Made by a program: the position numbers and the translations under genes. DNA of 64,000 nucleotides from the NCBI GenBank assembly GCA_049314455.1, contig JBMOFC010000007.1, positions 631 through 64,630 of the forward strand, read 5' to 3'. The DNA comes from Chthoniobacterales bacterium (GTDB lineage: Bacteria; Verrucomicrobiota; Verrucomicrobiia; Chthoniobacterales; UBA6821). Below the pieces are notes generated by a model, which saw only the letters and a list, made by a program, of their open reading frames with translations, was not told the origin of the DNA and did not search any database. Below, in pieces: positions 14,919-40,700 of this stretch (positions within the stretch are counted from its first letter, which is position 1; the number at the start of each line of letters is the position of its first letter).

Positions 14919-15917
14919 ATGAAAAAATTCTTCTTTCTCTTTTCATTAATCACGTTATTAGGATGTTGTTCTTCAAGCGTAGCAAACACTCAGCCTGTCT
15001 TAATTGCCGATCCGAGAGTGCTCTCGATTCCTATTTGTGACAATCAGGAGCCGCTCGTGGATCTTAGAAAAGAAGGCGGAATTGCCATTGGACCTTCCCC
15101 TGAAATTCCCAACAACACCGACTATACGTTTGTGAGAAAAAGTGTGGCTGAAAAATTACTCCAGGCACAAAAAAAATTACCACCTGGTCTTCAATTTCAA
15201 CTCTATGAAGGATATCGCAGCTTAGCTTTGCAAAAAAAACTTTTTGATACGTTCTTTGCGAAAATAAAAAAGGAACATCCTTCCTGGAGTTACAAACAAC
15301 AATTTTTAGAAACAACGCATTTGGTCTCTCCCGTTATCAATCTCGATGCGAGTCATAATATCCCGCCTCATTCTACGGGTGCAGCCATTGATGTTTATTT
15401 AGTCGATACCGCAGGAAAGTCAGTACCGATGGGCATCCATCCTAAAGATTGGATGCAGGATCTTGATGGCTCTCTCTCGTTGCCCCATTCTCAAAAAATT
15501 TCCGCTGAGGCGCGTCACTACCGAGCCATCATGAGTCGTGCTTTAAAGTCGGTAGGATTTGTTAATCTTGATACGGAATATTGGCATTGGTCTTATGGTG
15601 ATCGTTACTGGGCCTTCAAGAACCTGGATTCAAAGTCTGCTGAGACTGCGAATAAGAGTGTCGCGCCAAACGTCATCCCCGCAGAGGCGGGGATCGTCTC
15701 CTCGAGTACCTCTTGTACACTGCGGGACGGCGCGCCGTCGACTACTTGTTCTTCATCAGCCTTGAGTACTTTGAATGCAGGTTCTAAGAAAAAGAAACCA
15801 TGTGCCATTTATGGGACTACGTCTAAAAAGAGTGCGGCAGCAAATAACGCTAAGCCAGGAAAGCGTTGCGATGATTTCAAACCAAATAAGAGTTATCACA
15901 ATGATAGCTCACTTTGA
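14919..15917 (+). CDS. D-Ala-D-Ala dipeptidase (VanX/DdpX, peptidase M15D-like) lipoprotein with ~95-aa repeat-derived C-terminal tail
   Basis: Lipobox LLGC. It carries YEGYRSLALQKKLF, HSTGAAIDVYL and EYWHWSYGDRYWA, the zinc and catalytic motifs of the VanX family. The ORF continues through the element at 15629-15776. Confidence 0.75.
   Translation: MKKFFFLFSLITLLGCCSSSVANTQPVLIADPRVLSIPICDNQEPLVDLRKEGGIAIGPSPEIPNNTDYTFVRKSVAEKLLQAQKKLPPGLQFQLYEGYRSLALQKKLFDTFFAKIKKEHPSWSYKQQFLETTHLVSPVINLDASHNIPPHSTGAAIDVYLVDTAGKSVPMGIHPKDWMQDLDGSLSLPHSQKISAEARHYRAIMSRALKSVGFVNLDTEYWHWSYGDRYWAFKNLDSKSAETANKSVAPNVIPAEAGIVSSSTSCTLRDGAPSTTCSSSALSTLNAGSKKKKPCAIYGTTSKKSAAANNAKPGKRCDDFKPNKSYHNDSSL
15629..15776 (+). 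mobile_element. ~148-bp MITE-like element, in frame within the VanX-like ORF
   Basis: ...CAAAGTCTGCTGAGACTGCGA...GCGCCAAACGTCATCCCCGCAGAGGCGGGGATCGTCTCCTCGAGTACCTCTTGTACACTGCGGGACGGCGCGCC...TACTTTGAA. A homologous copy lies at 31978-32125. It translates to SKSAETANKSVAPNVIPAEAGIVSSSTSCTLRDGAPSTTCSSSALSTLNAGS. Confidence 0.8.
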
Positions 15918-37480: not shown

Positions 37481-37645
37481 ATGTTTCTTTTTCTTATTGC
37501 GGCTACTTTAACGAGTTGTGAATCGCTTGAAAACGGTTCTCATGATAATTCTTCTGTTTCCGCAAGTGCTATCCCTTGGAACAAGCCAGCTTCCTGGGAA
37601 GGAGCCGGAGCACTAGGTGGCATGGGATTTCAGGGGACGCACTAA
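37481..37645 (+). CDS. Small putative lipoprotein
   Basis: MFLFLIAATLTSC lipobox. Start is placed at ATG 37481 because the upstream part of the 94-aa ORF reads through CAACCCTT repeats. Confidence 0.35.
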   Translation: MFLFLIAATLTSCESLENGSHDNSSVSASAIPWNKPASWEGAGALGGMGFQGTH

Positions 37646-37787
37646 GTAGCCTGGATGCTAGAATTCCAACATGTTCTTTTTTAGGAGAAAATAAGTTTGA
37701 AATTTCTTTGCCGTCAACAATTGCGAGTGAAAGGTAATAATGGATCTTCAGGTAAATGGTAGTGTGAAATTTTCTCTAGCCTTTTTT

Positions 37788-38330
37788 ATGCGCCTCCTCT
37801 CGATCGATCCTTCCCTACGTGGCACTGGGTTTGCAATTTTAGAAGAGCATGATACCAAAATTCGATGTTTGGAATATGGAGTCATTAAAAATCCTCCGAA
37901 GTGGAGTGTGGCGACGTGTCTCTTGTCTATTCATGATCAATTGCTCACTGTGGTTAACGAGCATCAGCCAGAGGTAGTCGTTTTAGAAAGTGTCATCTAT
38001 GTTCAAAGTTATGCCACAGCTATTGTCCTAGGAGCTGCTCGGGGAGTAGTTTTGCTGCTTGCAGCACAAAAAGGGTTACCGATTCATGAATATCCTCCGA
38101 AGCGTGTGAAGCAGGCTGTGGTGGGGCATGGAGGAGCAGTGAAAAATCAAGTCGCTTTTATGGTGCGAGCACTTTTGGGGTTAACAGAAACTCCTTCCAG
38201 TGATGCTGCTGATGCCATGGCCATTGGACTCACCCACCTACGTGCCGCTTCAACGCCTTTACCCAAAAAAAGAAAATCAAATACGGCCTCTTGGAAAAAA
38301 TTTGTGGAAGGAAATAGGGGGCAGAAATAG
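37788..38330 (+). CDS. ruvC: Holliday junction resolvase RuvC
   Basis: MRLLSIDPSLRGTGFAILEE... and DAADAMAIGLTH catalytic motifs. Start is placed at ATG 37788. Confidence 0.88.
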   Translation: MRLLSIDPSLRGTGFAILEEHDTKIRCLEYGVIKNPPKWSVATCLLSIHDQLLTVVNEHQPEVVVLESVIYVQSYATAIVLGAARGVVLLLAAQKGLPIHEYPPKRVKQAVVGHGGAVKNQVAFMVRALLGLTETPSSDAADAMAIGLTHLRAASTPLPKKRKSNTASWKKFVEGNRGQK

Positions 38331-38428
38331 GGGTCAGGCTAAGAATATTGACAGAAGTACAGTAATAAAAAAAATCGAACCTAAAAATGAAATCTTTTGT
38401 CAATGTTCTTAGCCTGACCCCTATTTCT
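38323..38428 (+). promoter_or_regulatory. 31-bp near-perfect stem bracketing the ruvC-lipB junction and enclosing the lipB start codon
   Basis: AGAAATAGGGGTCAGGCTAAGAATATTGACA (38323-38353) pairs with TGTCAATGTTCTTAGCCTGACCCCTATTTCT (38398-38428), 30 of 31 complementary. The single difference is a G-U pair in plus-strand RNA. The 44-nt loop contains ATG 38387. Confidence 0.75.
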
Positions 38429-39073
38429 AGTTATGAATCCTCTTGGCTCGGACGTATGGATTATGAAGATGGACTGCGTCTTCAAGAAAAACTAGTAGCT
38501 CAAAAAATCGCAGGTGATTCTAAAAACTATCTGCTGTTTTTGGAGCATGAGTCTGTTTACACCATGGGACGCAGGAAGGATGATTCGAGTCTTGGCAAAA
38601 TAGCATTGCCTCATCCCGTCCATCGTATCGGTCGTGGTGGGGAGGCAACCTATCATGGGCCTGGGCAGTTAGTCTGTTATCCGATTCTTGACCTCTCCCT
38701 GTTTCAACGAGATTTGCATGCTTACCTTCGCTTTTTAGAAGAGTTGCTTATTCAAACGTTAGCGCACTATAACATCGTGGCAGTGCGTCGCGAAGGACTG
38801 ACCGGAGTTTGGGTTCAAGATCGCAAGATCGCTTCCCTAGGTATTGGCGTTCGCAAATGGATCTCCTTTCATGGACTCGCCCTCAATGTCTCAGGGGACC
38901 TTTCTCCTTTTCAAAAAATCACTCCGTGTGGTATCAACGGAGTCACTATAACCTCACTGGAACAAGAAGCACAACGAGGCGATTTTGATTTTATTCCACC
39001 ATCACTCAAGGAAGTCGCAGACCAGCTAGCAGATATTTTTATAAGAATGATTTTCAACATCTCTATTTCATGA
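38387..39073 (+). CDS. lipB: Octanoyltransferase LipB
   Basis: RIGRGGEATYHGPGQLVCYPIL and KIASLGIGVRKWISFHG motifs. Codons 5-14 are encoded by the right arm of the junction stem. Confidence 0.88.
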   Translation: MKSFVNVLSLTPISSYESSWLGRMDYEDGLRLQEKLVAQKIAGDSKNYLLFLEHESVYTMGRRKDDSSLGKIALPHPVHRIGRGGEATYHGPGQLVCYPILDLSLFQRDLHAYLRFLEELLIQTLAHYNIVAVRREGLTGVWVQDRKIASLGIGVRKWISFHGLALNVSGDLSPFQKITPCGINGVTITSLEQEAQRGDFDFIPPSLKEVADQLADIFIRMIFNISIS

Positions 39074-39119
39074 TGGAGGAGTAGTTTGACTACATATCCT
39101 TGAGTCCATTTTTTCAGCC

Positions 39120-40700
39120 ATGTCATTTTCAATATCAGGACAGACACATCACTCCGAGTGGAGCTATCCAGAGAACGAAAAAATTCCTCAAGCCTCAACA
39201 ACTCCAAACCCAGAGGATCCCTTTTATCCAATTCTTAACTTGAGGCAGAGCGAGCTCAATAGGCTTCTTCCCTCTATTAGAGTCCGCGAGGAGAGTGGTG
39301 TTGAATCTTCTATAAAATCTATTGTTGAGCAGAGAAATTCTCCAGCGGGAGTCTCTGAAATAAAAGACCATCTTGCTACCTATGCAACGCCTTCTAAAGA
39401 GCACGTAGGAACGGGGGGGCTAAAAAAATTTTTAAGTCCTCGTGAAATTTTAAAAAAAGATATCGAAGCGAGTAAGACAGACGGGGAGGTTAAGGGTCTT
39501 TTAGCAGAGGAGGGGGGATCACTAAAACTCAATCTGAAAGGAAATATTAGCCAAGTAGATGCTGCCGGCACAATCACATCAGAATGTCGTGAATGCCTAG
39601 ATGCTTTTGGAATTGAGGTGAAAGGAAAAATAGGAGAGGGGGCATTTGGCGTTGTTCTAGATGCTTCTATTGAGGGAGATAATGGAGAATATGTCGTCAA
39701 ACTAGAAAAAGAAATAATCATGAAACCTCTTGTTGAAGCAGAAGGTTTGTCTTTCCATGAGCGAGGGGACATAGCGGCGAGTTGTGTCAAGAAACTCACC
39801 AATGTCACCAAACCAATCTTTGTGATTGTGGCACTTCAAAAAGAAGAAAATAGTGAAATAGAATACCACTATCTTTCAGTGATGGAGGCAGAATCATTTT
39901 CTAAAGAATTTGCATGTCGTTATCCAAAAGCAAAAATAGGTATCGTTGCTCAACTCATGGAGCGTGTTGCTGGCGTCGAATTAAATGATGCCATTTGGGG
40001 CTCCAGTAGTGTAAGAGCAATAAATTTCAAGCCTTCAGGAATGCATTTTAAGAATGTGATGAATTCACTTTTTGTGCACTTGGAACGTGCTATTCTTAGC
40101 AACTATGTGCATCGCGATATAAAACCTGAAAATATCATTTACAATCCAAAAACTGGAAGGGTGCAACTTATTGATGGAGGGCTAGCAGCTTTTGGACGCA
40201 GTAAACTTCAATTGAAAGAGTACCAAGGGACTGCTCTTTATATGTCACCCCGCGTCTCGGTTGCAGAAAAGAATGATAAGACATATGGCCCAGAAGTTGA
40301 TGCTTACAGCATCGCCATAACCTTGTTGCATATGATTGACCCCATTTCTTTTCATTCAATCCGTGATAGTATAACGCGTACAAATGACAATTTTACTAGT
40401 GCTTTAATTACTCATATTAATGATGAAGATATAGAATCAAAGTACGTTGAGGCCTACGTGAAGGCTGCTGGAATTTATGCAGATCTTCCTGGAGTTCGTA
40501 ATTCTAAAATTTTTCAAGAACTCAATAAGCCAGAAAATATCTTCATTCGAAAATTAATCAGCTTATGCTTTCAAGTCTCTGCAGGAGGAGAGCGAGGTGA
40601 AACAGCTTTTCAAGAATGGCAAACGGCTTTTCACTCGTGGCAATCAGAGAATGGTTTTTCTAAGGAAATAAAACTTCTTTCTGAGTTGGATTCAGAATGA
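39120..40700 (+). CDS. Eukaryotic-like Ser/Thr protein kinase with ~170-aa non-kinase N-terminal region
   Basis: Gly-loop GEGAFGVV, Lys in YVVKLEK, catalytic loop HRDIKPENIIYN, LIDGGLAAFG (DFG-equivalent DGG) and GTALYMSPRV (APE-equivalent). No TM segment. Confidence 0.8.
   Translation: MSFSISGQTHHSEWSYPENEKIPQASTTPNPEDPFYPILNLRQSELNRLLPSIRVREESGVESSIKSIVEQRNSPAGVSEIKDHLATYATPSKEHVGTGGLKKFLSPREILKKDIEASKTDGEVKGLLAEEGGSLKLNLKGNISQVDAAGTITSECRECLDAFGIEVKGKIGEGAFGVVLDASIEGDNGEYVVKLEKEIIMKPLVEAEGLSFHERGDIAASCVKKLTNVTKPIFVIVALQKEENSEIEYHYLSVMEAESFSKEFACRYPKAKIGIVAQLMERVAGVELNDAIWGSSSVRAINFKPSGMHFKNVMNSLFVHLERAILSNYVHRDIKPENIIYNPKTGRVQLIDGGLAAFGRSKLQLKEYQGTALYMSPRVSVAEKNDKTYGPEVDAYSIAITLLHMIDPISFHSIRDSITRTNDNFTSALITHINDEDIESKYVEAYVKAAGIYADLPGVRNSKIFQELNKPENIFIRKLISLCFQVSAGGERGETAFQEWQTAFHSWQSENGFSKEIKLLSELDSE

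Follow-up and report, generated by a model that had tools for sequence, protein, structure and literature searches.

A mobile hairpin element of REPIN/MITE-like type as the probable origin of the palindrome spanning a ruvC-lipB junction in Chthoniobacterales

How does a long, near-perfect palindrome come to lie across the boundary between two conserved genes, so that one arm contains the end of ruvC, the other contains codons of lipB, and the loop between them contains the lipB start codon? The locus in question is found in the genome of a Chthoniobacterales bacterium (GTDB lineage Bacteria; Verrucomicrobiota; Verrucomicrobiia; Chthoniobacterales; UBA6821; assembly GCA_049314455.1), in a stretch of 64,000 nucleotides, positions 631 to 64,630 of contig JBMOFC010000007.1, which we refer to as the window and whose numbering is used throughout unless a contig is named. 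An earlier note on this sequence had proposed that such a duplex in a ruvC-lipB co-transcript should strongly affect lipB translation or be cleaved by a nuclease specific for double-stranded RNA. We find instead that a mobile element, non-autonomous and able to form a hairpin, very probably left one of its copies in the tight ruvC-lipB junction, and that this copy is the palindrome. The element resembles a REPIN (a doublet of repetitive extragenic palindromic, or REP, units forming a hairpin) or a MITE (a miniature transposable element with inverted repeats), and is linked to a transposase of the RAYT type (REP-associated tyrosine transposase). The analysis covers the organism's own assembly (G000; 2.0 Mb in 86 contigs, the window being part of contig C7) and a set of related genomes designated by G numbers.

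The structure itself is present as the earlier note described it, except in its size. The left arm, AGAAATAGGGGTCAGGCTAAGAATATTGACA (38323-38353), is complementary at 30 of 31 positions to 38398-38428, with a single mismatch that becomes a U-G pair on the plus strand, and an inverted-arm search returned 2 matches versus 0 in 100 shuffles. Pairing extends 4 bp past this 31-bp stem, giving plus-strand arms of 35 nt (38323-38357 and 38394-38428) that are 94% complementary and enclose a loop of 36 nt, not the 44 nt given previously. The stem departs from perfect pairing twice, each time as a sense-strand G-U wobble. The ruvC stop codon, TAG (38328-38330), is inside the left arm, 6-8 nt into the stem, while the lipB ATG (38387-38389) is within the loop, 4 nt 5' of the right arm. 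The right arm is read as LipB residues 3/4-14 (..FVNVLSLTPIS), which include the residues 5-14 (VNVLSLTPIS) that had been pointed out before, and the partial duplicate reported 5' of the left arm, GAAATAGGGGGCAG, is found at 38311-38324.

Folding of 38300-38450 as RNA, a calculation the earlier note had called for, predicts a very stable stem, with a minimum free energy of -65.1 kcal/mol compared to -29.9 +/- 3.7 kcal/mol for shuffled sequences (z = -9.5). The element folded as single-stranded DNA (ssDNA) gives -31.8 kcal/mol (z = -11). Searches of Rfam 15 at permissive E-values produced only generic long-hairpin (miRNA precursor) matches, all far below gathering thresholds. An intrinsic terminator was considered and rejected, as 37500-39300 contains no terminator-like site and the stem is not followed by a U-run.

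The palindrome belongs to a dispersed repeat family. A 23-nt core of the arm has 20 matches in G000 with at most 3 mismatches, versus 0 for the reversed control, and pairing of the plus and minus arm matches yields 17-18 full palindromes of ~105 bp. The family in G000 amounts to at least 18 full copies and 3 partial ones, two of these truncated at contig starts and the third a half copy. A 27-mer has 34 matches in G000 and diverged matches in only 4 of 12 congeners. Every full copy (18/18) is a doublet of arms with a constant spacing of ~36 nt, and, contig ends and the RAYT-like gene described below aside, every plus arm has a minus arm following it within ~100 bp. Two subfamilies can be distinguished by their heads, AAATAGGGG and CAAATGGGG. 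Insertions occur in both orientations, and when copies are oriented by the spacer, both arms and spacers align as homologous sequence; what is copied is therefore the doublet as a whole. The ruvC-lipB copy occupies 38323-38428 (~106 bp; G000:C7:38953-39058). Its left arm is one position off the family consensus AAATAGGGGTCAGGCTAAGAATATTGACAAAAG, and its A-rich spacer (38358-38393, plus strand) is homologous to the other spacers, if strongly diverged. Fifteen of the 18 full copies are located between genes or at gene ends. Partial element heads, among them GAAATAGGGGGCA at the ruvC-lipB junction, flank many copies. GAAATAGGGGGCA corresponds to an older variant, GGGGGCAG, and this remnant (38311-38324, plus strand) encodes the ...NRGQ of RuvC; the same variant is found in the copy within recJ and, as a decayed arm, beside the copy on contig C17.

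Comparison of the copies showed that the two arms have changed together. We aligned 21 copies (alignment A1), 4 of them from two sister species, across a stem of 34 pairs. In this alignment 94.8% of cells are paired and 13 of the 34 pairs have changed on both sides (50 cells). None of 500 shuffles reached this, and controls in which the arms were slid gave 37-51% paired. Complementarity of the arms is maintained at every locus, whatever the neighboring genes. The proposal that the duplex is a structure evolved at, or for, the ruvC-lipB junction is not supported by these observations, since it is one of ~20 dispersed palindromes with arms complementary at each locus and a RAYT-like transposase associated with them.

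Two further repeats in the window deserve mention here. The 148-bp in-frame palindrome at 15629-15776 was considered as a possible relative of the element and discarded, the sequences being unrelated. Directly 3' of the element end ...CCCCTATTTYTA, the 14-mer GTTATGAATYCTYT is found both at the C7 copy (window 38430-38443) and at the C4 copy (G000:C4:16622-16635). These are its only two occurrences in the genome, where 0.12 would be expected, and a near-identical string occurs ~25 nt after the ruvC stop in G005 (L242). It could represent an extended tail of the element, a transduced flank, or a target preference.

Other than at contig ends, a plus arm lacks such a partner at a candidate transposase gene. 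On the minus strand of contig C71 (1583-2584), an open reading frame (ORF) of 332 aa beginning MARGNRQELIFLNDHDR... is the one Y1/RAYT-like gene in G000 and is single-copy. It matches Pfam Y1_Tnp with 32 bits, above the gathering threshold of 23, and NCBIfam REP_Tyr_transpos (NF047646) with an E-value of 2.9e-13, over the catalytic core only. Its only PDB match is to TnpA_REP of E. coli (4ER8), with NHYHLF aligned to the HUH motif and DYIHLNPV to the catalytic-tyrosine motif. A full element adjoins the 3' side of the gene (C71:1468-1582), and an inverted single arm with a partial head is found on the 5' side (C71:2644-2692). Orthologues with 53-64% identity in G004, G010, G011, and G008 are likewise bracketed by related inverted arms, as in G010 with the arrangement ATAGGGGTCAGGCTTCAAAATTCAAATATTGAC - gene - TTGAAGCCTGACCCCTAT, and across at least 5 species the arm sequences diverge along with the Y1 gene. 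Among the congeners searched, transposase and element were both not found in G001 and G003, and in G006 the element was absent and no transposase match was scored. The transposase is present in 1 copy in G000 and G010, in 3 close copies in G004, and in 2 in G011. From the covariation across loci and the association with a Y1 gene, we infer that the hairpin is probably a DNA-level feature, namely an ssDNA substrate of the transposase, which would account for the arms remaining complementary wherever a copy is found.

Comparison with relatives shows what the junction looks like where this element is missing. At the level of genus, family, and order alike, ruvC and lipB are conserved as neighbors. 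The 2 genes overlap (ATGA) or are separated by a 4-nt gap in the sister genus, where no such palindrome is present. The TAATG junction of the congener G001 (...KLVIPS* / MVPLLQSRWLGR) does not have the palindrome either. The ruvC gene of G000 (37740-38330, plus strand; Pfam RuvC, 133.9 bits) would take its last 5-6 codons and its stop from element sequence. RuvC homology runs through ...SWK(K/N)F(I/V/L)E, after which the tails diverge in every species, and the tail found here, GNRGQK*, takes its NRGQ codons from the older head remnant and its K and stop codon from the full element. For lipB (38387-39073, plus strand; Pfam LplA-B_cat and NCBIfam LipB), it is the start codon and the first ~14 residues that would come from the element. 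Alignments of LipB to 40 relatives start between residues 7 and 23, with homology from about residue 17-20; the YESSW LGR segment is shared with G002, G005, and G010, while MKSFVNVLSLTPIS is found nowhere else. Since homology with orthologues ends at ...SWKKFVE in RuvC and starts at about residue 17 in LipB, the arm-encoded residues of both proteins are, judged by these alignments, element-derived and lineage-specific additions. The earlier note had named orthologues as the check on whether the arms are ordinary coding sequence, and the absence of these residues from them indicates, in favor of that note, that they are not.

No element copy was found next to ruvC in G003, G005, G010, or G011. 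For three of these, the DNA examined upstream of lipB contained no ruvC (G005, L010; G010, L011; G011, L014), and in G010 it extended only ~270 nt to the contig end. The LipB proteins of G005 and G010 have a different long N-terminal extension (MDGV.LNN.TSC...). Hairpin repeats of other kinds, with arms built from short words in tandem, occupy the ruvC-lipB spacer in three congeners: AGAACACAA... in G009 (L015) and G012 (L016), and GGCTAAAGGCTGAAGGCTAAAGG... in G004 (L017). From these sequences, the junction thus seems to be a place where palindromic elements land recurrently. At the other end of ruvC, the ORF as listed begins (37740-37790) 16-19 codons before the Pfam model and all orthologue alignments, and the gene probably begins instead at the ATG inside ...FFMRLLSIDPS, at about 37788.

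Where does LipB start in this arrangement? In the lipB frame there are stop codons at 38363-38368, and between these and the conserved WLGR the one ATG, GTG, or TTG codon is the ATG at 38387. Therefore, barring use of a non-canonical codon, LipB starts within the spacer of the element. Most other copies, 3 of 3 in the nearest subfamily among them, carry ATA at the position homologous to this ATG (TAT on the strand aligned), and the lipB ATG may have arisen by a point change from ATA to ATG after insertion. Another ATG, at 38433 in AGTTATGAATCC, was evaluated as the ancestral lipB start and rejected for not being in frame; when G001, G002, G005, and G010 are aligned in the lipB frame, this region turns out to be the Y-E codon pair of the ancestral lipB. 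Shine-Dalgarno-like motifs are found upstream of 5% of long-ORF starts in G000 versus 13% of internal controls, and the regions upstream of starts are G-poor and A/T-rich. Initiation in this genome appears to be independent of Shine-Dalgarno sequences, and given this depletion and the G-poor upstream regions, the A-rich loop would be a normal initiation context here.

Contact with genes is not confined to ruvC and lipB. In four copies, the gene upstream ends at the TAG of the element itself, these genes being ruvC and the ORFs that end at C14:2884, C46:6843, and C2:39507. Three of the 18 full copies, all diverged, are read in frame inside intact genes: recJ, a family-9 glycosyltransferase (GT9), and a PMT-like membrane glycosyltransferase. 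Within the DHH domain of recJ, the copy (G000:C23:15009-15122) follows immediately on the DHH motif and accounts for a segment of 39 residues with a net gain of ~23. This insertion is common to G000 and G010 (orthologue G010:C5:14099-15865) and absent from 9 other congeners, and its presence in both genomes marks it as old and tolerated. The GT9 and PMT-like copies are at G000:C12:13679-13783 and G000:C32:11500-11619, with the GT9 insertion falling within the Pfam domain. Across ORFs that read through copies, a recurring arm peptide, FVKxxSLTPI, is recognizable, and the N-terminus of LipB is one version of it.

These observations can be assembled into the following history. A REPIN-like doublet, consisting of two inverted 35-nt arms around a ~36-nt spacer, would have been mobilized in trans by the single-copy RAYT (Y1/HUH) transposase. 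One copy would have landed in a ruvC-lipB junction in which the genes originally abutted, adjoining the remnant of an older copy. The insertion would have replaced the variable C-terminal tail of RuvC, so that ruvC now ends at the TAG of the element head, and would have removed the original lipB start. From then on lipB would start at the ATG in the spacer and read through the right arm, adding ~14-16 non-homologous residues to the protein. Any effects at the RNA level, whether damping of lipB, coupling of lipB to ribosomes terminating on ruvC, or cleavage by RNase III, would be by-products of the insertion or adaptations acquired secondarily.

Several observations weigh against an origin of this kind. 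Apart from the 14-mer shared by the C4 and C7 copies, no target-site duplication or common flank motif was found in the flanks of the copies, although the lack of a target-site duplication is more easily squared with a Y1 than with a DDE enzyme. A single arm is no palindrome, and its fold (-0.6 to -1.0 kcal/mol) does not surpass that of shuffled sequences, so that classical REPs with single-arm hairpins are not what is present, and the heads read ATAG or AATG rather than the classical REP 5' GTAG (GT[AG]G). The C71 ORF, at 49.9 bits, misses the curated NF047646 cut-off of 80 bits. The presence of several transposase copies in G004 and G011 looks more like an insertion sequence than like a classical RAYT. 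In G000 itself (C71:2585-2640), ACG replaces the ATG with which the orthologues in G004, G010, G011, and G023 initiate (M[AP]RSIRIEYEGAYYHV or MARGN...), and initiation at the GTG or ATG that come next in frame would cost the protein its first beta-strand. The transposase of G000 may therefore be N-terminally truncated or inactive, or else the ACG may be an assembly error. Lastly, no clean empty site emerged from the collections searched: scans of metagenome and genome contigs with LipB gave nothing closer than 78% identity, and the nearest genome with ruvC beside lipB, G001, has proteins that are only ~72% identical.

The alternative that fares best asks what the element does now rather than where it came from. 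It holds that the insertion was exapted as a lipB promoter, in which the TTGACA of the left arm (38348-38353) and the AAAAAT of the spacer (38370-38375) would direct transcription of a near-leaderless mRNA from ~38382 that does not include the left arm. This is compatible with a mobile-element origin and competes only with the reading of the hairpin as part of a co-transcript. The sigma-70-like match (38348-38375, plus strand), TTGACA-16-AAAAAT, scores 10 of 12 positions as a match to the consensus only, and its predicted start is near 38382. Upstream of the RAYT start in G010 and G011, the TTGACA of the arm is accompanied by a plausible -10 box (G010 reads TTGACG-16-TAAATT), so that the arm probably carries a real -35 box; moreover, the A-rich stretch that gives AAAAAT is peculiar to the ruvC-lipB copy. 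A transcript beginning at 38382 would have no cost of opening the start region, while in the co-transcript freeing 38372-38406 is predicted to cost 20.7 kcal/mol. RNase III acting on the co-transcript would cut within lipB codons 5-14, and a duplex-free message could be advantageous for that reason. On the other hand, there are four such promoter matches in 1.8 kb, where 2.2 are expected by chance, the -10 hexamer is weak, and the consensus is that of sigma-70, while the promoter rules of Verrucomicrobiota are not established. The ancestral ATGA/TAATG arrangement also implies that ruvC and lipB are co-transcribed. We regard exaptation as a promoter as possible, at well under even chances.

A more elaborate version is that a REPIN-type copy has been rebuilt into the entire initiation module of lipB, with the arm supplying a -35 box, an A-rich leader free of Shine-Dalgarno sequence supplying a -10-like box, an ATA-to-ATG change supplying the start, and the duplex tying LipB synthesis to read-through from ruvC or setting it against it. 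We consider this speculative, unlikely though far from negligible. If true, it would mean that a REPIN-type element had rescued and rewired a gene of an essential pathway that it had itself decapitated.

A second alternative, close to what the earlier note envisaged, takes the duplex as a functional cis-regulatory RNA of the ruvC-lipB co-transcript, maintained for throttling, coupling, or cleavage by a nuclease specific for double-stranded RNA. The RNA hairpin is indeed very stable, and in the predicted co-transcript the probability of being unpaired is 0.72 at the lipB ATG and 0.99 over the 15 nt upstream but 0.23 over +4 to +20, so that the start codon is exposed and the following codons are mostly paired. 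Because the ruvC stop is 6-8 nt inside the stem, ribosomes terminating on ruvC must enter it, and could melt much of it, coupling lipB initiation to ruvC translation. A duplex of 35 bp is also plausible as a substrate of RNase III, and the two imperfections of the stem are sense-strand wobbles. Liang, Rudd and Deutscher reportedly found in 2015 that REPs near a stop codon lower expression of the upstream gene. A precedent for cleavage is available in the Correia inverted repeats, which are cut by RNase III in Neisseria transcripts (PMC2649163, PMC10969869). Against this, ~20 copies in unrelated settings, coding sequence among them, retain the same complementarity, and therefore no selection specific to this locus is needed to account for it. 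Two wobbles on the sense strand would be expected by chance about 1 time in 4, and relatives manage the ruvC-lipB junction with no hairpin or with unrelated ones. We consider it unlikely that the duplex is maintained for such a function.

Least probable is an ordinary MITE moved by a DDE-type insertion sequence, with the neighboring Y1 gene a coincidence: the MITE-like build (35-nt terminal inverted repeats, no capacity to code, and a total length of ~105 bp) and the failure of single arms to form hairpins would suit it, but the flanks are without target-site duplications, G000 has no longer element bounded by the arms apart from the Y1 gene, and the arms bracket that gene in at least 5 species and diverge along with it.

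A hairpin element linked to a RAYT-like transposase thus remains the reading that we favor, and under it a regulatory stem that looks purpose-built would be an ordinary product of mobile DNA. For annotation, this means that the N-terminus of LipB and the C-terminus of RuvC in this lineage should be treated as element-derived, and that other "coding stems" in G000 should be read in the same way. The family adds a compact, RAYT-linked hairpin element from the little-studied freshwater Chthoniobacterales. It is extragenic in some places, supplies the ends of genes in others, and is in frame within genes in still others, a behavior like that of Rickettsia palindromic elements (RPEs) that is here linked to an identifiable Y1 transposase. 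The locus is also a natural test case for how a genome that makes no use of Shine-Dalgarno sequences tolerates a duplex of 35 bp around a start codon. The kind of element is itself known; the local twist is that a REPIN/MITE-like element donates the stop of ruvC and the start of lipB.

The closest known systems are the REPINs and RAYTs of which the GI-GIII REPINs of Pseudomonas fluorescens SBW25 and the REP/TnpA_REP system of E. coli are examples (Bertels and Rainey 2011; PMC3116915, PMC3337134). In REPINs, spacers vary between copies while the REP units are conserved (Bertels and Rainey; PMC3337134). The family in G000 shares with them inverted conserved units around a variable spacer that form a hairpin of ~90-110 nt, a copy number in the tens with most copies at gene boundaries, and arms that are conserved and complementary while spacers differ. 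It also shares a Y1/HUH gene that is flanked by inverted units and single-copy in G000, a lineage-restricted distribution that looks vertical, and partial units adjoining full copies. It differs in that the arms are non-palindromic, the head is ATAG/AATG in place of GTAG, and the spacer is an open loop outside the hairpin. The transposase is also different, being ~330 aa in length with a long C-terminal extension and falling below the NCBIfam RAYT cut-off. In addition, some congeners have 2-3 transposase copies, and 3 of the 18 element copies are in frame inside genes.

The Correia elements (CREE) of Neisseria are similar as hairpin elements of ~100-150 bp with terminal inverted repeats that are found at gene junctions and can contribute promoter boxes (PMC2649163, PMC10969869). 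When co-transcribed, they form a duplex that RNase III can cleave, which alters the expression of neighboring genes (PMC2649163, PMC10969869), and for this they are, by analogy, the best precedent for the idea of a regulatory duplex. They have no sequence relation to the G000 element, duplicate a TA target, carry a site for integration host factor (IHF), and have no known association with a RAYT. The RPEs are said to have been described by Ogata et al. in 2000. They are palindromic, have an open frame, and are tolerated inside protein-coding genes (PMC10969869). The G000 element resembles them in being in frame in the recJ, GT9, and PMT-like genes and in supplying the termini of RuvC and LipB. 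This likeness is one of behavior only, as RPEs belong to another sequence family and another phylum, and most G000 copies are intergenic. For the element described here, in contrast to the RPEs, for which no transposase is known, a candidate transposase can be identified.

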